DNA from: a virus
Taxonomy: Duplodnaviria > Caudoviricetes
Direction: 5' to 3' (one strand)
Virus record (IMG/VR): IMGVR_UViG_3300043775_003512
Coordinates: 1-27,050 of that record
DNA length: 27,050 nt
Shown here one piece after another: positions 5,325 to 20,428 of the stretch. The notes under the pieces were generated by a model that was given only the letters and a program-made list of their open reading frames with translations, was not told the origin of the DNA and did not search any database. Position 1 is the first letter of the stretch. Every line of letters begins with the position of its first letter. The position numbers were made by a program, and so were the translations under genes.

Positions 5325-5335
5325 TTTGTATATTA
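5325..5335 (+). promoter_or_regulatory. Putative phage promoter motif TTTGTATATTA
   Basis: Identical 11-mer at 17117-17127; variants at 13081-13091 and 19834-19844; all intergenic and upstream of gene starts. Confidence 0.45.
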
Positions 5336-5345
5336 AAGTATAACA

Positions 5346-5358
5346 TAAAAAACCAACA
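5346..5358 (+). promoter_or_regulatory. Leader motif TAAAAAACCAACA, copy 1
   Basis: Ends 2 nt before ATG 5361; identical at 8335-8347 and 15071-15083. Confidence 0.65.
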
Positions 5359-5360
5359 GT

Positions 5361-6620
5361 ATGAAATATGAAAATAAACCAGATGATCTGGTTCAAGAGA
5401 CTACAACGGTAGGCCAAGTTGATATTGATATAGATGCTATTTTTGGAACACCAGGTGCAGAAAATGTAATGCTTCCTGATAACCAAGAAGAGCCAGAAAA
5501 AAAATCTGTTTTTACGGCTGAAAAAACAGATATGACGTTCTTTGACAATCCTTCTTCAAAAACTGCTGATGAAAAAAGAGTTGATGAAGAAAAACAAGTA
5601 GAAGTTGAAGAGACTATTGCTGAACTAGATAGTTTGATTAGTCAAGAAGAGGATGCTGGTAATAAAGGCAGACCTAAACTTGATAAATCCGGACTTTATG
5701 ATCTAGCTACCAAAATGATTGAGGAAGGTAGTTTAATTCCTTTTGATGATGATAAATCATTAGAAGAATATACTACTAAAGACTTTAGAGAATTATTTGA
5801 AGCCAACTTTCAAGAGAGAGAGGCTAAAATAAGAGAGAACACACCCAAAGAGTTTTTTCAATCTCTTCCTCCAGAACTTCAATATGCAGCAAAATATGTA
5901 GCTGACGGAGGCCAAGACTTAAAAGGTCTTTTCAGAACATTAGCACATGTAGAAGAAATCAGACAGTTAGATCCCTCTAATGAGTATGACCAAGCCGCAA
6001 TTGCAAGACAATATCTCTATGCTACTCAGTTTGGTACACCTGAAGAAATTGAAGCAGAAATTCAAGATTGGTCAGAGCTTGGAAGACTATCTCAAAAAGC
6101 AAATCAGTTTAAACCTAAACTTGATAGAATGCAAGAAGATATTGTTGCTAGACAACTCGCAGAGCAAGAATATAAAAAGCAACAACAAGCAGAACAAGCT
6201 AAAGCTTATCAAGATAATGTTTATAATACTCTTGTAACAGGTGAGGTAGGTGGAATTAAGTTAGATAGAAAAACACAAAGTCAACTTTATTCAGGATTAG
6301 TTCAACCTAATTATCCATCTATTTCGGGAAGAAATACAAACTTGCTAGGACACTTGTTAGAGAAATATCAGTTTGTAGAACCTAGACATGATTTGATTGC
6401 AGAAGCTCTATGGTTACTTTCAGATCCTGACGGCTATAGAAGCAAAGTAAAAGATCAAGGTAGTAAACAAGCTGTAGAAAAAACAGTAAGGCAACTTAAA
6501 ACAGAAGAAGCAAGAAAAAATCCTTCTTCAACAGGTGTAGATAACGAACCTCAACAGAGAGGAGTTTCAAAACCTGGTAAAACAATATCACGTTCAAACA
6601 ATATGTTTAAACGTTTTTAA
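5361..6620 (+). CDS. Putative capsid scaffolding/assembly protein
   Basis: 419 aa; acidic low-complexity N-terminus, helical coiled-coil core, basic C-terminus; lies between portal and major capsid protein. Confidence 0.65.
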   Translation: MKYENKPDDLVQETTTVGQVDIDIDAIFGTPGAENVMLPDNQEEPEKKSVFTAEKTDMTFFDNPSSKTADEKRVDEEKQVEVEETIAELDSLISQEEDAGNKGRPKLDKSGLYDLATKMIEEGSLIPFDDDKSLEEYTTKDFRELFEANFQEREAKIRENTPKEFFQSLPPELQYAAKYVADGGQDLKGLFRTLAHVEEIRQLDPSNEYDQAAIARQYLYATQFGTPEEIEAEIQDWSELGRLSQKANQFKPKLDRMQEDIVARQLAEQEYKKQQQAEQAKAYQDNVYNTLVTGEVGGIKLDRKTQSQLYSGLVQPNYPSISGRNTNLLGHLLEKYQFVEPRHDLIAEALWLLSDPDGYRSKVKDQGSKQAVEKTVRQLKTEEARKNPSSTGVDNEPQQRGVSKPGKTISRSNNMFKRF

Positions 6621-8324: not shown

Positions 8325-8347
8325 AACCAACAAATAAAAAACCAACA
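8325..8347 (+). promoter_or_regulatory. Tandem leader motif AACCAACAAA + TAAAAAACCAACA, copy 2
   Basis: Two AACCAACA cores at 8325-8332 and 8340-8347; the last A of the second is the A of ATG 8347. Confidence 0.65.
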
Positions 8348-9360
8348 TGGAAACAAAATTTACAATGGTAGAAACTACCAGCAGAAAAAAAACTAAGTTA
8401 GCAATTAGACCTTTTATAGATACTAATTCAGGTAACATGGGTCTTGAAGAATATGGTCTAGCTTTATATGACGGTGTTAAACATCATGAACAATTAGCAT
8501 GTCTTGAAGCTAATGGTGTAATGAGATATTTAACAGGCCTTAATGAATTTGCTCCAGAAATCAAGCTTCTTCCTACAGAAGAAAGAGAAGCTAGAGTAAG
8601 ACAAATTAGAGAAACAGTTTCAGAATTAGAAAAAGAACTAGCAGCAAATGTATTAGATCCTGAAGATAAAGATTTTTGGAACCAGGTAAAAATGTTAAAA
8701 CCTGATAATTCAGAGTTTTGGAATAAGATTGAGATTAAGTGTGGTAATGAACCGGTATTCTTAGATCTTACTCAACCTTTTGATAGAATTAAGTATTTAG
8801 CTATTGAAGCAGGAGGATTTTCAATTGTAGCAAAAAGCTATGAAGATGCTAGATCAAGACCTGTACCACCTAAATTCTATCTAGATAAAGAAGAAGAAAC
8901 TTCAATGATTAGAACTGAATACAAGAAGATGCGTAACAAAGCTCTTGCTGAACTTCAGAAATTATATGATAAGAACAGCACTAAACTATTTTACATTGCA
9001 AAAATTGTAGATGGTAATAGTGCCCAATATAGAAAAGCAACTCCGTTGGATGTGATATATGAAAATATGGATAGACACATTAATGGAGAAGGTTCCGAAC
9101 CAAACAAAGAAAGATCAGCTAAATCATTTATAGATGCCGCTAATCTTGACATGGAAACTTTAAAAATTAAATCAATTGTTAGAGATTCCAGTTTTTTTAA
9201 GTATATTATTAATAAGGCAGATGGATATATTTATCATGCTAAGACAGTCACACTGCTTGGTCGAAATGTATCTGATGTAGTTGAGTATTTAAAAAACCCT
9301 TTACATGAAGATATTTTAAATGATCTGAACTCTGCTGTAGAAAAAGTTTGGCAATCTTAA
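8347..9360 (+). CDS. Conserved hypothetical protein downstream of major capsid gene
   Basis: 337 aa ORF with normal codon usage; position typical of a conserved post-capsid gene in crAss-like phages; function not recognisable. Confidence 0.75.
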   Translation: METKFTMVETTSRKKTKLAIRPFIDTNSGNMGLEEYGLALYDGVKHHEQLACLEANGVMRYLTGLNEFAPEIKLLPTEEREARVRQIRETVSELEKELAANVLDPEDKDFWNQVKMLKPDNSEFWNKIEIKCGNEPVFLDLTQPFDRIKYLAIEAGGFSIVAKSYEDARSRPVPPKFYLDKEEETSMIRTEYKKMRNKALAELQKLYDKNSTKLFYIAKIVDGNSAQYRKATPLDVIYENMDRHINGEGSEPNKERSAKSFIDAANLDMETLKIKSIVRDSSFFKYIINKADGYIYHAKTVTLLGRNVSDVVEYLKNPLHEDILNDLNSAVEKVWQS

Positions 9361-9372
9361 ATTAATATAAAA

Positions 9373-9729
9373 ATGAAAACTGTTAAAAAGTATCAAGCTG
9401 GTGGTGAACCATTGATGGGTACTCAACCTCCCATGAAATCTAATAATGGAGCTATTAGAAAATCTAATAAAGGAGCTGTTTCTGAAGCTTCAAAAAAGTT
9501 TAAAAACTCTATGAAAGAACAGTCAAGACCTCCTTATCAACTTAATCCAGATTCTCGTCCAAAAAAATTTATGCAAAAAAGCGGTACTACAGGTGTAGGT
9601 AAAAGCATTACTACTAAAAAAGGTTCTATGGCAACAATGTCTAAAAAACCTCTTACACCTAAAGCTGCATACGGAATGGCTGTAAAACCAGGTATGATGA
9701 AAAAAGGTGGAAAAATGAAATCTAAATAA
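9373..9729 (+). CDS. Small Lys/Met-rich basic protein with xxGG motifs
   Basis: 118 aa; KKYQAGG at N-terminus, MMKKGG near C-terminus; tightly packed in the operon. Confidence 0.75.
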   Translation: MKTVKKYQAGGEPLMGTQPPMKSNNGAIRKSNKGAVSEASKKFKNSMKEQSRPPYQLNPDSRPKKFMQKSGTTGVGKSITTKKGSMATMSKKPLTPKAAYGMAVKPGMMKKGGKMKSK

Positions 9730-9737
9730 TCATTAAG

Positions 9738-9935
9738 ATGAGAAGTCCTAAAGGTAAAGTTGCCCGATTAGAAAAAAAAGAAAACAAACTTGTTTATAAA
9801 GGGAACAAGGCTGTTGATGAAGGTAGAGAAAGAAAAGCAGATAGACTTTTAAAAAGAGCTGCTAGAACTGAAAACCGTGTAATCAAAGCAACTGAAAAAA
9901 TGAAAAAAGGTGGATCAGTTAAAAAGAAAATGTAA
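9738..9935 (+). CDS. Small basic protein with MKKGG motif
   Basis: 65 aa, K/R-rich; TAATG overlap with next gene. Confidence 0.7.
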   Translation: MRSPKGKVARLEKKENKLVYKGNKAVDEGRERKADRLLKRAARTENRVIKATEKMKKGGSVKKKM

Positions 9936-10273
9936 TGCCTAAAGATTCTTGCTATCATAGTGTAAAGGCAAGGTACGATGTATTTCCTTCAGCAAGAGCT
10001 TCTCAAGCTATTGCTAAATGCCGTAAAGGTAAAGGTCAAGTAAGAAAGACTGAGAAGGGTACTGAGCTTAAAAGATGGCAAGCAGAAAAATGGCAAGATA
10101 CAAAATCTGGAAAAGCTTGTGGGGCCGGTGGTAAAAATGAATACTGCCGGCCTACCAAAAGAGTTTCAAGTAAAACACCTAAAACTAAAAGTGAAATTTC
10201 TCCTTCTAAACTAGCTGCTAAGAAAGCTGAGAAGTCTAGAGTAGGTATGGGGAGAAGAGTTAAAAAAGTATAG
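9935..10273 (+). CDS. Small basic protein with four Cys (aquatic virus hypothetical family)
   Basis: 112 aa; LKRWQAEKWQD...CG...YCRPTKRVSSKTPKT pattern resembles small basic proteins recurring in aquatic viral genomes (from memory, not searched). Confidence 0.75.
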   Translation: MPKDSCYHSVKARYDVFPSARASQAIAKCRKGKGQVRKTEKGTELKRWQAEKWQDTKSGKACGAGGKNEYCRPTKRVSSKTPKTKSEISPSKLAAKKAEKSRVGMGRRVKKV

Positions 10274-10275
10274 TT

Positions 10276-10518
10276 ATGGCAATAAGAAAAACAACTGCTA
10301 AAAAAGCACCAGCTAAAAAATCAAATACAGCAAGTATTTCAATTGGTCTTGGTACTAATAAAGCTGAGATGAGAAAGTGGGAAATTGAATCTGCTATGTC
10401 TACATTAAAGAGAGCAGCAGAAATTCAAAATGATTCCAAGCTTATGTCGGATGTAAAAAAGATGGCAATGGAACAAGCTAAGATGTTTAATAATCTTGCT
10501 AATGGTAAAATGAAATAG
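10276..10518 (+). CDS. Small basic protein
   Basis: 80 aa; histone H1-like N-terminus (KTTAKKAPAKK), helical C-terminus; 2-nt gaps to both neighbours. Confidence 0.7.
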   Translation: MAIRKTTAKKAPAKKSNTASISIGLGTNKAEMRKWEIESAMSTLKRAAEIQNDSKLMSDVKKMAMEQAKMFNNLANGKMK

Positions 10519-10520
10519 TC

Positions 10521-10802
10521 ATGGCAAAAAAGAAAACAGCTGCATGGACTCGTAAAGAGGGTAAAGATCCTAAAGGAGGTCTTAATGCAAAAGGAGTAGC
10601 TAGCTATAGAGCAGCTAATCCAGGTAGTAAGTTACAAACTGCTGTTACCAAAAAACCATCGCAGCTTGATCCTGATAGCAAAGATGCTAAAAGAAGAAAG
10701 TCTTTTTGTAGTAGATCTGCAGGGCAAATGGCTAATTTTCCAAAAGCTGCTAAAGATCCAAATAGTAGATTAAGATTAGCAAGGAAAAAATGGAATTGTT
10801 GA
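10521..10802 (+). CDS. Small basic protein (WTRKEGKDPKGGLNAKG...RRKSFC...KWNC family)
   Basis: 93 aa; motif set recurs in aquatic phage hypothetical proteins; ends ARKKWNC-TGA. Confidence 0.8.
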   Translation: MAKKKTAAWTRKEGKDPKGGLNAKGVASYRAANPGSKLQTAVTKKPSQLDPDSKDAKRRKSFCSRSAGQMANFPKAAKDPNSRLRLARKKWNC

Positions 10803-11374
10803 TATGCCATCAAAGAAGATAGAATATAATTGTACACATTGTGATAATTCTTTTATAAGAGGTAAATCAGATATTGAAAGAACATTAAAAAAGAATAATA
10901 CTGTTTTTTGTACTATAACTTGTTCAAAAGATTATAACAATAAAATACAATTAGAAAAAGGTTTTTCAGAAAACAAAACATGTAAGAAATGTAACATAGA
11001 AAAACCAAGAACAAATGAATATTTTACAGCACATAAAAGAACCTTAGATGGTTTTGACAGTTGGTGTAAAACATGTAGAGCTTCTTATAGAAGTGAAATA
11101 AGAAGAGGTCAATATAGATCAATGATTAGTGATGAAGAATTAAAAGAATTAATCAAAACTGAAGGTTGTATTATATGTGGATCTGAAGAAAACCTTGTAG
11201 TTGATCACTGTCATACTACAAATATAGTAAGGGGAATGCTTTGCAATAATTGTAATATGGGATTAGGTCATTTTAAAGATGATCCTTTTTTATTAGAGTT
11301 TGCACGGATTTATTTACTATATTATAATAAAGAGTCTTCTGAAGCAAAAGAGTATTTAAGAAAATGGAATTGTT
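10787..11374 (+). mobile_element. Putative homing-endonuclease cassette bounded by 14-bp direct repeats
   Basis: AAAATGGAATTGTT at 10787-10800 and 11361-11374 flanks the endonuclease VII ORF. Confidence 0.6.
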
Positions 11375-11376
11375 AA
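10804..11376 (+). CDS. Endonuclease VII-family (His-Me finger) nuclease, probable free-standing homing endonuclease
   Basis: 190 aa; CIICG...LVVDHCH...VRGMLCNNCNMGLGHFKDD is the endonuclease VII signature; N-terminal CxxC zinc-binding modules (CTHC/FCTITC; CKKC/WCKTC). Confidence 0.88.
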   Translation: MPSKKIEYNCTHCDNSFIRGKSDIERTLKKNNTVFCTITCSKDYNNKIQLEKGFSENKTCKKCNIEKPRTNEYFTAHKRTLDGFDSWCKTCRASYRSEIRRGQYRSMISDEELKELIKTEGCIICGSEENLVVDHCHTTNIVRGMLCNNCNMGLGHFKDDPFLLEFARIYLLYYNKESSEAKEYLRKWNC

Positions 11377-11388
11377 AATATATTTATT

Positions 11389-11643
11389 ATGAAAAAAGTA
11401 ATGTGTGCTAAATGCGGAGGCTCTATGAAAAAAATGTCAAAAGGTGGTCAACCTAATATGACCAAAACAATGCCTGGTTACAATGCAACTACCAGCCCAA
11501 TCACTATGAAAAAAGGTGGTGCCAAAAAAAGCAATCCTTTTGGTATGCTTTCAGTAATAGCAGGAATTGATAAAAATCCAAAACCTACAGCTGCTGATAG
11601 AATTGCTGGAGCAACTAAAAGAAAAACAGCTAAGAAGAAATAA
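11389..11643 (+). CDS. Small basic protein with three xxGG motifs
   Basis: 84 aa; CAKCGG, MSKGG, MKKGG; C-terminal DKNPKPTAADRIAGA. Confidence 0.7.
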   Translation: MKKVMCAKCGGSMKKMSKGGQPNMTKTMPGYNATTSPITMKKGGAKKSNPFGMLSVIAGIDKNPKPTAADRIAGATKRKTAKKK

Positions 11644-11645
11644 CT

Positions 11646-11837
11646 ATGGCAACTAAGAAAAAACCTTCTGCCGGCCTGACTAAAAAGCAAAAGTCATCCG
11701 TTACTAAGAAAGCCAGAGCAGGTAAAGATATTGGTAAAAAAGGTAAAAACTTTGACGAAGTAGCTAAAGAAGCAGGGGGTGGTGAAAAAGGAAAAAGAAT
11801 TGCTGCAGCCGCAATGTGGAAAAATATTAAAAGATAA
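11646..11837 (+). CDS. Small Lys/Ala/Gly-rich basic protein
   Basis: 63 aa; KKARAGKDIGKKGKNF...IAAAAMWKN; TAATG overlap with next gene. Confidence 0.7.
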   Translation: MATKKKPSAGLTKKQKSSVTKKARAGKDIGKKGKNFDEVAKEAGGGEKGKRIAAAAMWKNIKR

Positions 11838-12538: not shown

Positions 12539-13060
12539 ATGCAAACACCGTCAAGACTTTTAAAAAGAAATCCTGAGCCAGTTAAAACAATTACTAGACC
12601 TCAAACTCCTGCACCAGAACCTACTAAACCAGAACCTGTTAAACCAGAACCTGTTAAAGACACTGGGGTAGGGGGAAGTTCTCTAGATAATATGGTAGCA
12701 GCATGTGCTGTAGAACTAATGAATGCTAGAAATAGTTTTCATAAACTGCATCTTAAAGTAACAGGTCCTGGATCTTATGCCGCACATAAAGCACTTAATG
12801 AGCTTTATGATCAAATTCCTGACTTTGTAGATACTCTTATGGAAGGCTATCAAGGAGTATCAGAAAAAATTCTTACGTGTAAAGATTTAGCACCCAGAAC
12901 TCTTGAAGATGTTTCTGATGGAATTTCTTACTTAAGAGATTTATATGCTATAATAAATAAACTTCAAGGTATGATGCCTTATTCAGAAATAGTAAATAAC
13001 TTAGATCTTGTAAAAGATGCTATTAATTCTACTAAATATAAATTACTTTTTCTAAAATAA
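12539..13060 (+). CDS. Ferritin/Dps-like four-helix-bundle protein with Pro-rich N-terminal extension
   Basis: FHKLHLKVTGPGSYAAHKALNELYD...DTLMEGYQG...NNLDLVKDAINSTKYKLLFL; His/Asp/Glu spacing characteristic of Dps-like proteins. Confidence 0.8.
   Translation: MQTPSRLLKRNPEPVKTITRPQTPAPEPTKPEPVKPEPVKDTGVGGSSLDNMVAACAVELMNARNSFHKLHLKVTGPGSYAAHKALNELYDQIPDFVDTLMEGYQGVSEKILTCKDLAPRTLEDVSDGISYLRDLYAIINKLQGMMPYSEIVNNLDLVKDAINSTKYKLLFLK
12614..12658 (+). repeat. 3 x 15-bp in-frame tandem repeat (PEPTK-PEPVK-PEPVK)
   Basis: CCAGAACCTACTAAA CCAGAACCTGTTAAA CCAGAACCTGTTAAA read directly. Confidence 0.92.
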
Positions 13061-15070: not shown

Positions 15071-15083
15071 TAAAAAACCAACA
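15071..15083 (+). promoter_or_regulatory. Leader motif TAAAAAACCAACA, copy 3
   Basis: Ends 3 nt before ATG 15087. Confidence 0.65.
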
Positions 15084-15086
15084 ACT

Positions 15087-15227
15087 ATGAGTACATGTCC
15101 TAATTGCTTAAAAAAATTATCCTGTGGGTGCCAAAGAAGAACAGCATCTAATGGAAAAGTTGTTTGTAGCAATTGTTTAAAAAATTATGAAAATACTTTA
15201 AAAACGGATTCTGAAATAAAAAGCTAA
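15087..15227 (+). CDS. 46-aa Cys-rich microprotein (not in ORF track)
   Basis: Manual translation MSTCPNCLKKLSCGCQRRTASNGKVVCSNCLKNYENTLKTDSEIKS; CxxC-CxC-CxxC; fills the intergenic gap and carries the shared leader motif. Confidence 0.75.
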   Translation: MSTCPNCLKKLSCGCQRRTASNGKVVCSNCLKNYENTLKTDSEIKS

Positions 15228-15268: not shown

Positions 15269-17116
15269 ATGGCAGCAACTTTGATCCCAGATCCAACTCC
15301 TATAGCAAATCTTATAAAATTTGTTAACTGTTGTACTGGCCAAGAAATATTTTTCAGAGGATCTTTGCCTTTTGTAAATGGTGATGTTGTAACTTATATA
15401 GGTACTACACCATTTCCGGGGGCAGGAGGATCATTAGAGCCAACTACTGGTGAATTTGGAATATGTTATATTTTTTATTCTGGATATGTGGACGGCATAC
15501 CTCCATATCCAGCCATTGATCCTGTAGCATCTTTATTTAGTCTAATACCTGATGGTTGTGAAGATGCTAAATGTTCTTGTGATGTTGAAATACCACAATG
15601 TTATATGATAATACCTTGTGATGGAACTGAACCAATCATAAGTAATAATTCCGCATTTGAAACTTATCTTAATTCATTTATTACAGTGGATAGCGAAGTT
15701 TATGCAGGATGTGCTTATATAACAGCACTGAGGTACACTGATTGCTCAGAAGCTATTGCAATAGAACCAATTGATACACCATGTGAATGTGACTTAATTT
15801 GTTATTATGTAGCAAATACAAATGGGTTCTTTTATGTAGACAGTGATAACGTTTTGCAAAATGTTTCTTTAGCAAATGCTCAACCTTATTTAAAAGTTTG
15901 TTCAAAAATACCACCTATAGCAGAAGATGGATCAATATCACCGCAGATTATTGATCTCGGTTCCTGTGTTGAAGGTCTTTGTCTTGTACAATGCTTTAAA
16001 TTAACAAACTGTAAAAATTCAGATTTGGTAATTTATACAACTTCAAACAGTGTAATTCCTAATGTATATGGAACTAATAATGTTGTTAATATACTCGGTA
16101 GAGAAGGTTGTTGGATAGCTTCTGAACTTGATGATGAAGAAGAATGTGATTGTCCAATTGATGTTACAGTAACTGCAAGTTTTAAAGATTGTGAGGAATG
16201 TATTGGTGTAGTAGCTTATAAATTAACATCTTGTACAGATGGGAGCACCATACATACTTATTCAGATTTAGAAGTTTATATAGGTCAAGTAGTAAAAAAT
16301 GATTGTGATTGTTATTTAGTTGAAAAAGTAAATTATAATCCTGTAAGTCCGCAAGTAATTGAAATTGATAATAGTTATCCTAATTGTGTAACTTGTTTAA
16401 GAACTTATTATAAACTAACTGATTGTGAGAATGCTGAAAATATTGTTATTACTTATTCAGATCTTGCTCAATATGTAGGTGGAGTTATTAAAGTTGAAGG
16501 TTGTACAGAATGTTGGTCAGTAGAAAATACAGAAGACTATCTTAATGCAATTGAAGTAACTGTAACTACCGATTATATAAGCTGCAGTGATTGTAAAGTT
16601 CTTACATGTAATTGTACAAAAGTTACTAATTTAAATGCAGTAGTTACAGTTTATTCATATTTTGATTGTGATAACATTCTTCATGAAATATCATTAGTTC
16701 CCGGACAAAGTAGTGATAAAGTTTGTGCAACAGAATGGTTTTTAGGAGATATAGAAAACCCTATAGAATTTACAGTATATGATTATTTTGAAACATTTGG
16801 AGAATGTAAATTTGGTAATTGCCCGCCTCCAGTATTCAAAAATAATAGAACTGTAAAACCTGGATATAATACACCTAACTGCAATCCTGACGAATATGAT
16901 AAGATAACATGTCGCTTTGCAGATGTTGTATATAAACAGGTTCTTGAAAAAAGATATGGTATTAGCAATTGTTGTCCTGATGAAGATGAGAAGTGGTTAA
17001 TGAAAAAAGAACTAATTGACTTACAATCTTTGAAGGATCCTAATTACAAATGCCCATCATGTCCCTGCTCTTGTAATTCCGGAAAATCATGCTTAACTTG
17101 CAAATGTGGAAATTAA
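15269..17116 (+). CDS. Cys-rich modular repeat protein, probable virion/tail-associated
   Basis: 615 aa, about 50 Cys by hand count; three [YF]KLTxC...CxxC repeats; C-terminal tail CPSCPCSCNSGKSCLTCKC. Confidence 0.7.
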   Translation: MAATLIPDPTPIANLIKFVNCCTGQEIFFRGSLPFVNGDVVTYIGTTPFPGAGGSLEPTTGEFGICYIFYSGYVDGIPPYPAIDPVASLFSLIPDGCEDAKCSCDVEIPQCYMIIPCDGTEPIISNNSAFETYLNSFITVDSEVYAGCAYITALRYTDCSEAIAIEPIDTPCECDLICYYVANTNGFFYVDSDNVLQNVSLANAQPYLKVCSKIPPIAEDGSISPQIIDLGSCVEGLCLVQCFKLTNCKNSDLVIYTTSNSVIPNVYGTNNVVNILGREGCWIASELDDEEECDCPIDVTVTASFKDCEECIGVVAYKLTSCTDGSTIHTYSDLEVYIGQVVKNDCDCYLVEKVNYNPVSPQVIEIDNSYPNCVTCLRTYYKLTDCENAENIVITYSDLAQYVGGVIKVEGCTECWSVENTEDYLNAIEVTVTTDYISCSDCKVLTCNCTKVTNLNAVVTVYSYFDCDNILHEISLVPGQSSDKVCATEWFLGDIENPIEFTVYDYFETFGECKFGNCPPPVFKNNRTVKPGYNTPNCNPDEYDKITCRFADVVYKQVLEKRYGISNCCPDEDEKWLMKKELIDLQSLKDPNYKCPSCPCSCNSGKSCLTCKCGN

Positions 17117-18586: not shown

Positions 18587-19735
18587 ATGGCAACTTCTCA
18601 CAATTGTACTAAAAATTGCGGATGTACTGATACATACGTTGTTACACCACCTTGTCCTCCTTCATGTCCCGAAGTGTTTAATGCTTCTTGTATTGTTTAT
18701 ACAGGTACTGATATTACATGTAATGGGGATGTTGTAATCAGTCGATATGATTATATGGACACTGTTATTACTAAATTAGTAAACTATATCTGTAATACAG
18801 TAGGTCCTGTAACCACGGTTGTAGGTTCTACTTATGTTGACGTTGTACCAGCAACCGTAGGTAATGTAACAACATATACAGTATCAGTTGATATTCCGGC
18901 TTTACAAGCTTACTTTGATATTATTATTGCACAAACTATTGCATCATCATTTTTTGCTGGTCCTGGTATTAATGTAGCTGTTAATCCTATCACAAGTGCT
19001 GTTACTGTATCTCATCAAGATACATCATCTGTAGCAAATTTAAATAGTGATAACAGTGGTAATTCATTTATACAAGATATATTCTTTACATTTGATACTT
19101 TTGGACACGTTACTGGAGCATCAGTAGTACCGGGAAGTGTAATTCAACCAAATGATTTTGATAGAGCTCAGATTAATCCTGATTCAGGTTTTGTGTGGGG
19201 TCCGGATAATGATCCTACAAATATTCAGATTGCTGAAGCTCCTGGAGATACTTTAAATTTTGTAGCTGGTACTGGAATTACTCTTAATGCTAGTACTGTT
19301 CCTGGTACAGATGCTATTAGAATCACTAACTCATCACCTGCTTCAGCTGTATCTTTAACTTCCGCAGGAGGTTTGGGAACAGAATCCTTAGTTAATGATG
19401 GAGCAGGACCTACTTTAGCAAATAAAGGTTTGGCCGCAGGTTCAGGTATTACATTGACTTCAACAGCTACAGATGTTACTATTTCAGCAGATGTTCAAAA
19501 ATACAGAGAAGTTTTAATAGTACCTTTGGCTCCAGGGGGTACTGCTGTAATAACTCATAATTTAAATACTTTTGGGATTGTGGTTTCAGCAATTAATGAA
19601 GCTTTACCAGCACCTTTTGTAGTGTATACTTCACCCGCTGATTATACATATGTAATTAATAGTGCTAATCAAATTACTGTGACTAACACATCTTTAGTAG
19701 CTTTAAATAACTTTAGTATCACTGTCATAGGATAA
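18587..19735 (+). CDS. Putative tail fibre protein
   Basis: 382 aa; N-terminal module related to previous gene (SCIVYTGTDITC); repeated AGxGI[TN] beta units; FDTFGHVTG and ITHNLNT motifs typical of phage fibres. Confidence 0.7.
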   Translation: MATSHNCTKNCGCTDTYVVTPPCPPSCPEVFNASCIVYTGTDITCNGDVVISRYDYMDTVITKLVNYICNTVGPVTTVVGSTYVDVVPATVGNVTTYTVSVDIPALQAYFDIIIAQTIASSFFAGPGINVAVNPITSAVTVSHQDTSSVANLNSDNSGNSFIQDIFFTFDTFGHVTGASVVPGSVIQPNDFDRAQINPDSGFVWGPDNDPTNIQIAEAPGDTLNFVAGTGITLNASTVPGTDAIRITNSSPASAVSLTSAGGLGTESLVNDGAGPTLANKGLAAGSGITLTSTATDVTISADVQKYREVLIVPLAPGGTAVITHNLNTFGIVVSAINEALPAPFVVYTSPADYTYVINSANQITVTNTSLVALNNFSITVIG

Positions 19736-19737
19736 TA

Positions 19738-19804
19738 TTGTTACAGGTTTGTTGGTTTCTGTGACAAACAGACAAAGCCCTTGCACTTGTGAGGGCTTTG
19801 TTTT
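19738..19804 (+). ncRNA. Candidate structured small RNA: hairpin with GUUUGUUGGUUU loop followed by terminator hairpin
   Basis: Stem TTGTTACAG (19738-19746) / CTGTGACAA (19759-19767) with one G:U; 12-nt loop complementary to the AAACCAACA leader motif core. Confidence 0.45.
19772..19804 (+). terminator. Rho-independent terminator after fibre genes
   Basis: ACAAAGCCCTTGC-ACTT-GTGAGGGCTTTGT 13-bp stem (two G:U) running into T-rich sequence. Confidence 0.8.
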
Positions 19805-19817
19805 ATATGTATATTTG
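19787..19817 (+). promoter_or_regulatory. Bacteroidota primary-sigma type promoter (-33 TTG, -7 TATATTTG)
   Basis: TATATTTG at 19810-19817 matches the TAnnTTTG -7 consensus; TTG at 19787-19789 with a 20-nt spacer; upstream of the IHF-like gene. Confidence 0.5.
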
Positions 19818-19846: not shown

Positions 19847-20428
19847 ATGAAGACATTTAAAAAGCCTGATTTAAAAGCACCTAGGTTTAGACCAGAAACA
19901 CACAGTGTTTTAGATAAAAAATTTTTTGATGACTTTAGAAAAAAACATGCTAAGTATAAAGATTATACAAATGCTGAGTTGAGAGAGATAATAAAAGCAT
20001 TCAATAAAATGGTTTATACAACAGTGATAGAAAAAAGAGATGGTGTTCAATTACCAGAGAATGTTGGATGGCTTTTTATTGGTACTTGTCAAAAAAGTAA
20101 AAAGACAAATGTAGATTATGCAAAGTCTAACAAGTATGGAGTAACTGTTACAAATAGCAATTTTGATACTGATGGTAAACTAGCAAAAATCTTTTTTACA
20201 AACTATGCACCAAAGCACAAAATGAAAAACAGAGAATTTTGGAATTTTGTAGCATGTCGAGACTTTAAAAGATCTGTTTCTAAAAGTTATCCTGAGAATT
20301 GGAATATGTATGTAGCTGTAGATTCAACCATTAAACTAAGGAAAACCTATGAAAAAGCTGTATATAAAAGTATGGTTGTGAATAAAGAAAAACAAGCTTT
20401 AAAAAGCTATAATGAATTTGAATTATGA
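19847..20428 (+). CDS. IHF/HU-like DNA-binding protein
   Basis: 193 aa, basic; helix-helix then GVQLPENVGWLFI beta motif as in the HU/IHF fold; crAss-like phages carry such a gene next to tail ring genes. Confidence 0.6.
   Translation: MKTFKKPDLKAPRFRPETHSVLDKKFFDDFRKKHAKYKDYTNAELREIIKAFNKMVYTTVIEKRDGVQLPENVGWLFIGTCQKSKKTNVDYAKSNKYGVTVTNSNFDTDGKLAKIFFTNYAPKHKMKNREFWNFVACRDFKRSVSKSYPENWNMYVAVDSTIKLRKTYEKAVYKSMVVNKEKQALKSYNEFEL

Follow-up and report, generated by a model that had tools for sequence, protein, structure and literature searches.

The window, by which we mean the whole 27,050-nucleotide stretch analysed (positions 1 to 27,050 of IMG/VR record IMGVR_UViG_3300043775_003512), comes from a crAss-like phage and covers its morphogenesis block, encoded on a single strand. 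The capsid, ring and muzzle proteins of crAss phages are encoded here in the order usual for Crassvirales-type morphogenesis blocks, and terminase and portal genes were also identified. The features considered here are the following.

5350 to 5358, plus strand: tag AAACCAACA before the pre-capsid gene
5361 to 6620, plus strand: 419-aa pre-capsid gene, scaffold-like by its position
6649, plus strand: Crass_capsid (Pfam)
8325 to 8334 (AACCAACAAA) and 8339 to 8347, plus strand: two tags before the post-capsid gene
8347 to 9360, plus strand: 337-aa post-capsid gene
15075 to 15084, plus strand: tag before the Cys-rich ORF
15087 to 15227, plus strand: 46-aa Cys-rich ORF (CxxC...CxC...CxxC), unannotated, present in nearly all relatives
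18587 to 19735, plus strand: 382-aa gene upstream of the hairpin, varying between relatives
19738 to 19767, plus strand: seed hairpin with a 9–10 bp stem and a G/U-rich loop, from folding and conservation
19738 to 19746 and 19759 to 19767, plus strand: stem arms TTGTTACAG and CTGTGACAA
19747 to 19758, plus strand: loop GTTTGTTGGTTT (as RNA, GUUUGUUGGUUU), with the core seed GUUGGUU at 19751 to 19757
19770 to 19806, plus strand: intrinsic-terminator-like hairpin (arm from 19772) and U tract, the predicted RNA 3′ end
19810 to 19817, plus strand: TAnnTTTG, matching the Bacteroidota −7 promoter element
19847 to 20428, plus strand: 193-aa HU/IHF-like gene, used as search anchor
20425 and 21087, plus strand: CrAss_Ring_1 and CrAss_Ring_2 (Pfam)
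22003, plus strand: crAss_MUZ, muzzle (Pfam)

The seed hairpin lies directly after the stop codon of the 382-aa gene and is separated by 4 nt from the arm of the second hairpin. An earlier sequence-only reading had described the hairpin, its loop and the terminator, and all of these were confirmed, together with their coordinates. That reading had also called the 382-aa gene a fibre gene; the hairpin does follow its stop codon, but the gene has no Pfam or PHROG match and the fibre label comes from its position. Folding of positions 19730–19815 gave −31.9 kcal/mol on the plus strand (z −4.9; equalled by 0 of 200 shuffled sequences) and −19.8 kcal/mol on the minus strand. Every non-Watson–Crick pair is G:U when the hairpin is read on the plus strand, and the U tract is likewise on this strand, as expected from the claim that the RNA is made from it. 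Only the second hairpin has the form of a plain intrinsic terminator, with a G+C-rich stem followed by a U tract. A plain terminator is therefore insufficient to explain the locus, since it leaves the fixed loop of the first hairpin unaccounted for. No Rfam family reached its gathering score; MicC alone was reported, at 32.9 bits against 90 (E 0.24), and this match was driven by the terminator. The possibility that the motif here simply marks the leader of a minus-strand gene, raised in the sequence-only reading against its own proposal, was ruled out, as no ORF of at least 50 aa starts there.

The surroundings of the hairpin show several further features. A TATATT-like motif, often TTGTATATT or TAGTATATT, is found upstream of late genes at 5327, 8316, 13084, 17119 and 19836, and is a candidate phage late promoter. 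The TAnnTTTG at 19810–19817 probably serves the next gene downstream, which may be nearly leaderless. The ACUN of the terminator loop (19785–19788 in the window) is kept in homologues within the close clade, and the TTG of this loop, about 20 nt before TAnnTTTG, may double as a −33 promoter element. The model of the 193-aa protein (pLDDT 90.5) gave weak matches to HU/IHF folds, the best with E 0.06. On its 5′ side the hairpin adjoins a hypervariable slot, and some of the genes ending there (L037, L038, L069, L070 and L029) have a VRAVR-like terminus, an ending that we take to be that of C-type lectin targets of diversity-generating retroelements. Elsewhere in the window, the post-capsid gene is followed at 9373–11837 by a series of short ORFs very rich in Lys/Arg, one of which matches DUF5872 and among which lies an endonuclease VII-like gene (10804–11376), and a DUF5856/Dps-ferritin-like gene (PHROG 858) is located inside the morphogenesis block at 12539–13060.

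A 19-nt pattern representing the element gave 15 matches in GTDB genomes. Fourteen were without the second hairpin and the remaining one was phage-like, which rules out a host repeat; this sole true copy is on a phage-like contig of 118 kb that had been assigned to a Chitinophagaceae MAG. Because of this location, and because TAnnTTTG matches the Bacteroidota promoter consensus (given as a −7 element in passages of PMC7366714), we infer that the phage host belongs to the Bacteroidota.

Of 195 distinct related loci that have 2.2 kb or more of upstream sequence, 189 contain the element, consisting of hairpin and terminator, according to a script that also allows a changed seed. An earlier set, which included distant loci, gave 168 of 173; in both counts the identity of the anchor protein reaches down to about 37%. 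Two of the five loci outside the 168 show the hairpin by eye (L072, L311), one is truncated, one (L349) carries a single G>C change in the seed and one has lost the element. The hairpin is also visible by eye at L581, which the script missed. A stricter hairpin script, which gave 123 of 173, had passed over elements visible by eye and is superseded by these counts. The 168 elements contain 90 different stems around a nearly fixed loop (UUGUUGGUUU, almost always UUGUUGGUU(U)), the pattern of variable stem and invariant loop that had been proposed as a check; the search demanded a GUUGGU core, a choice that leaves the number of loci having the core unaffected. Mean hairpin energy was −8.1 kcal/mol, compared with −2.4 kcal/mol at 1448 control GTTGGT sites, 44 of which passed both filters. 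The plus strand folds better in 149 of the 168 elements and the minus strand in 18, and G:U pairs, which make up 164 of 1474 stem pairs, also favour the plus strand, so that the predicted strand preference extends beyond the window.

In the terminator of 54 close relatives, five of eight core pairs have changed on both sides and 100% of cells are paired. When the stem of the seed hairpin was counted directly, 95.5% of cells were paired and changes were one-sided only. An RNAalifold/MAFFT fold in which the seed pairs with the 3′ arm was put down to gap placement on the strength of this direct count. There may be a conformational switch between the seed hairpin and seed/3′-arm pairing.

The position of the element is that of an mRNA 3′ end with a shared intrinsic terminator, as in 3′-UTR-derived sRNAs: the seed lies 10–29 nt past the upstream stop codon in 147 of 168 elements. 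Wherever the script found a true element there was one copy per whole genome. All of the 80 closest loci of the downstream 193-aa gene have the hairpin, with a different upstream gene, and since the upstream gene varies no conserved upstream promoter is apparent. Adjacency to the HU/IHF-like gene is not obligate; in other clades the element is 1.35–2.0 kb upstream of it, with two genes between. It therefore belongs to the end of the tail block, and a cis-regulator of the HU/IHF-like gene is ruled out by the intervening genes in several clades. In cr106_1, Fpv3 and csAssE-Sib the gaps examined contained no such hairpin, and leaders at the target positions were without AACCAAC.

The loop is complementary to a tag, AAACCAACA, that occurs six times in the window against 0.49 expected. 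Three occurrences are on the plus strand at starts (5350, 8339 and 15075), and one on the minus strand is the hairpin loop itself. The remaining two minus-strand matches (13460 and 25218; TGTTGGTTT on the plus strand), absent from the sequence-only reading, lie inside coding sequence; the four leader matches that it had claimed are all present in the sequence as listed above. Enrichment at starts was measured in two sets, 12 close relatives with near-complete genomes (1529 ORFs, called by a simple procedure) and 12 more distant records. AACCAAC was enriched 19.6-fold in the close set and 26-fold in the distant set, compared with 1.2–5.6-fold overall for near-variant control motifs (2.7–5.6 in the 12 distant records), so that the suggested test for enrichment at start codons came out positive. 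AACCAACA was present in 48 copies at most 25 nt from a start in the 12 close relatives, 35-fold over coding sequence, and AAAACCAACAA tiles were the top four family-conserved 8-mers of 9873 seen at starts. In the conserved gene families the start of the tag peaks at −13 to −10, and at least two copies are present in 18 of 68 core leaders. In 200 kb of the Chitinophagaceae MAG, a small sample from what is only a possible host relative, AACCAAC was found at 0 of 162 starts, where about 6 would be expected at the phage rate.

The tag marks a defined set of genes. In 24 genomes (G005 adds duplicated copies, and G033 is covered to 80 of 82.6 kb), AACCAA[CT] was found between −30 and +18 of the pre-capsid gene in 23/23 cases, the post-capsid gene in 21/24, the Cys-rich ORF in 20/21, a 97-aa gene in 12/16 and a 118-aa gene in 10/22. 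In the 97-aa gene the tag is often within codons 2–5 (ATG GAA AAC CAA CA; 8 of 12 close genomes, for example G003 at 15726). The capsid and portal genes are outside the families with at least three tagged members. A conserved seed is thus complementary to the start regions of unlinked genes, as with 3′-UTR sRNAs, and one of these genes is on the opposite strand, as the 118-aa gene sits in the oppositely oriented replication block. The sequence-only reading had named selected late genes as targets; this holds for the structural-module genes, but the tagged 118-aa gene shows that they are not the only ones.

The products of the tagged genes look like assembly helpers rather than bulk virion parts. 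A putative scaffold function for the pre-capsid protein comes from its position and a sub-threshold Atlas lead; in csAssE-Sib the corresponding protein carries the annotation 'putative structural protein'. For the post-capsid family there is a match to cr106_1 gp034 (E 3.6e-8), whose annotation includes a double-stranded DNA-binding domain. Modelling of the post-capsid protein (pLDDT 79.9, pTM 0.47) gave only matches of about 60 residues to RecA (rmsd 1.5–2 Å, E 0.3 or worse); this RecA-like part of the model would be in line with the DNA-binding annotation of the gut crAss homologue. The Cys-rich ORF possibly encodes a zinc-binding protein. No PDB sequence match was found for the target proteins, and Atlas searches named no family. 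In the cultured Cellulophaga phage φ4:1, gp061, gp062, gp064 and gp066 have a virion-proteomics note, and gp063 and gp065, the positional counterparts of the targets, are without one.

When the loop of the window was used as query, the three tagged leaders ranked 1–3 of 24 starts (−13.0, −11.4 and −11.0; next −7.7), which is the outcome anticipated for this check; the Cys-rich start was placed 2 nt off in this ranking, with the tag still inside the region tested. Predicted net binding is modest, at −5.4, −4.9 and −1.4 kcal/mol compared with −2.7 kcal/mol for the capsid leader, in a model without kissing loops. The tagged leaders themselves are nearly unstructured (0 to −3.2 kcal/mol).

Loop and tag have also been lost together. 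G044 has lost both hairpin and terminator; in its post-capsid leader, AGTCAAT takes the place of the AACCAAC found in three sisters (90–91% identity) that carry the hairpin, and its Cys-rich leader is untagged. In these sisters the pre-capsid tag is already AACTAAC. The seed hairpin is absent from L561, L563, L564 and L566, and the tag was found in none of the three Cys-rich leaders available. L564 and L566 retain a plain terminator, and the Cys-rich leader of L564 is untagged. On a tree of 58 selected anchor proteins, two changes are the minimum required; the hairpin was lost in at least two lineages, and the tested leaders of both are without the tag. Over all loci, AACCAA was present in 99 of 105 Cys-rich leaders from hairpin-bearing loci and in one of five from loci without it (Fisher p 1.7e-4, kinship ignored), the single tagged leader of the latter group being that of L581, the script miss. 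The possibility that relatives keep the leader motif without the hairpin, which would have spoken against the proposal, was not borne out in the leaders tested. The correspondence is looser in some genomes. G052 and G053 keep the hairpin with imperfect post-capsid tags. The Leptolyngbya phage Lbo-JY46 (PP438436.1; L290) has the hairpin at about 91630 on the minus strand; its leaders for these genes are without AACCAAC, and the post-capsid gene is preceded only by AAACAACAACAAAA. This phage is recorded as a cyanophage, but has crAss-like genes and TAnnTTTG before genes, and its true host may be a Bacteroidota member of the culture.

φ4:1 (NC_021788.1; L632) has the same hairpin-plus-terminator layout in the gp046–gp045 gap (50914–51026, minus strand). 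Its element follows the tail fibre gene gp046 and has a different stem and the loop UUUUUGGUUUUU (lineage loop UUUUUGGUUUU), followed by the terminator. A pattern scan for this loop identified G054, which has an identical loop, another stem and a tandem AAAAACCAAAAACCAAAC leader. In both phages a G-to-U change in the loop is matched by a C-to-A change in the post-capsid leader (AAAACCAAA), which in φ4:1 reads AAAACCAAAAA; AAAACCAAA leaders at φ4:1 gp063 and gp046 match its loop. The post-capsid site ranks first of 184 φ4:1 starts for its own loop and 12th for the window loop, and the pre-capsid leader ranks 14th of 184. Each loop pairs best with leaders of its own lineage: the window loop scores −13.0 with the window leader but −8.8 or −9.7 with those of φ4:1 and G054, and the φ4:1 loop reaches −9.8 or −10.4 within its lineage, against −8.0 with the window leader. 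This compensatory change is known from one lineage only, AAAACCAAAA-like A-rich leaders are frequent in unrelated AT-rich phages, and the profile matches of gp063 and gp065 to the target families are weak (E 0.06 and 0.12), which makes these two genes counterparts by position. At the base flanking the seed there was no covariation: T follows AACCAAC at 4 of 27 sites in genomes with an A-GUUGG loop and at 6 of 37 sites in the others. A wobble comparison gave 16 C>T and 18 C>A changes in core leaders, and 65 and 103 elsewhere. What was seen of the covariation of loop and leader that had been looked for is co-loss in at least two lineages and one change in the φ4:1 lineage, with none at the flanking base. 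The sRNA reading as a whole is supported in part, by its comparative predictions for stems, strand, tag enrichment, co-loss and compensatory change, though not by any at this base.

The hairpin and its complementary tag are real and conserved, and the comparisons above suggest that they are likely to constitute a regulatory antisense RNA and its targets. The joint loss or alteration of loop and tag in some relatives makes pairing of the hairpin with the tagged messages likely. Our preferred reading, to which we give a probability of roughly 0.58, is that a 3′-end antisense RNA pairs in trans with the tagged messages and represses their translation, as GcvB does; RNA–RNA pairing of either sign seems to us distinctly probable. 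On this reading the tail-gene message probably has the hairpin and terminator as its 3′ end; the element would be transcribed within this message and act as the mRNA end or as a stable decay fragment. The GUUGGUU seed would pair with AACCAAC just before the start codons of a fixed gene set, beginning as a contact between the loop and single-stranded, unstructured A/C-rich leaders, and the duplex would block ribosome loading. Repression is the expected sign because the duplex would cover A-rich positions that Bacteroidetes use instead of a Shine–Dalgarno sequence; translation in this group benefits from adenines at −3, −6 and −11 to −15 (PMC7366714). Such a late feedback might damp the pre-capsid, post-capsid and Cys-rich assembly helpers while the untagged capsid and portal messages stay open.

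The same pairing might instead activate, by aiding ribosome loading (for example as a Shine–Dalgarno substitute in trans) or by protecting the mRNA 5′ end. All of the pairing evidence fits this equally, the tag is at a Shine–Dalgarno-like distance, and Bacteroidota ribosomes, which reportedly sequester their anti-Shine–Dalgarno sequence, do not use this contact. We nevertheless regard activation as unlikely: the leaders are nearly unstructured, so there is nothing to unmask, the virion genes most needed carry no tag, and in the 97-aa gene a duplex within codons 2–5 would hinder translation.

It is also unlikely that the tag is a protein-binding site in RNA or DNA, with the hairpin locus as a decoy or opposite-strand site and no RNA–RNA pairing. 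Tandem tags, as in the core leaders, are typical of dimeric RNA-binding proteins, a shared protein would also give co-loss and co-change, and an HU/IHF-like gene is nearby. However, the G:U pairs, the folding energy and the U tract all favour the plus strand, on which the complement of the tag is read rather than the tag itself, and a double-stranded DNA site would require no stem, yet 90 stems are kept.

It is quite improbable that the tag enhances translation, that the first hairpin serves only in a tandem terminator or in stabilising the 3′ end, and that the two are complementary by chance. A/C-rich leaders are common in these phages and the element always precedes a terminator, but a stabiliser could do without a fixed loop. 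The highest-ranking of the conserved start motifs is the one that this loop matches, the deep G>U/C>A change links it to its leader, and in L564 and L566 the terminator was kept when the seed hairpin was lost, in L564 with an untagged Cys-rich leader. A main target in host RNA or in the leaders of a competing phage, with the phage's own tags incidental or acting as sponges, would account for a seed that barely changes over a very wide clade, as a slowly evolving external target would predict, and for the lack of flank covariation, but is highly improbable given that the tags decay once the hairpin is lost and that the small host-relative sample had none at its starts.

If the repression reading is correct, a conserved multi-target regulatory RNA operates over a broad, mostly uncultured phage group and acts on Bacteroidota leaders without a Shine–Dalgarno sequence. 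We know of little work on how lytic phages set the ratio of helpers to virion parts post-transcriptionally. A broader and doubtful extension is that a large group of lytic crAss-like phages has an RNA address system of its own. The loop at the 3′ end of the tail message would read a phage-specific leader tag, and transcription of the tail genes would in this way directly determine how far the head-assembly helpers are translated. The intact mRNA end might suffice for this without a distinct sRNA, and the system might replace Shine–Dalgarno pairing in trans in hosts that lack it. The seed and tag would offer a compact pair for gene control in Bacteroidota, and φ4:1 with Cellulophaga baltica is a cultured system with a co-varied pair, in which a direct test is possible.

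The literature searches brought up no description of the element. The close-clade motif had no match in seven supplementary files of a catalogue of phage structured RNAs (PMC10690425), whose large files 1 and 2 were outside the comparison and may list it as an unnamed candidate. The co-loss cases and the φ4:1/G054 variant were tested in the present analysis. The element would work like GcvB, GibS and CisR-type 3′-UTR sRNAs, but is treated as a candidate rather than filed as a member of these. According to PMC3879156, GcvB silences ACA translation enhancers, and like the element it is one RNA directed at A/C-rich sites upstream of several starts, where the target site may itself enhance translation. 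GcvB, however, is an enteric host sRNA acting beside a Shine–Dalgarno sequence, whereas the element has a 10–14 nt hairpin-loop seed at the end of a phage mRNA, belongs to phages of hosts without use of that sequence and would target the phage's own genes; Rfam gave no sequence relation between the two. CisR of Vibrio cholerae is described in PMC13250501 as a 3′-UTR-derived sRNA that pairs with and represses a phage structural mRNA. It shares with the element a seed followed by the terminator of an mRNA, but is host-encoded and Hfq-assisted, where the element is phage-encoded. GibS of Bacteroides thetaiotaomicron, a member of the Bacteroidota, pairs in trans over start regions and represses (PMC7366714), as is proposed for the element; GibS is intergenic, with an extended single-stranded 5′ seed of 30–50 nt, in contrast to the looped seed of 7–11 nt considered here. 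The review PMC12197685, in which 'crass' and 'bacteroid' have 0 occurrences, describes in some of its passages phage sRNAs mostly from temperate phages of Proteobacteria, among them the antisense RNAs OOP and aQ of λ and sas of P22, which control phage genes by pairing. Each of these examples belongs to a temperate phage and has a single target gene, whereas the element is a candidate multi-target trans seed in crAss-like morphogenesis.
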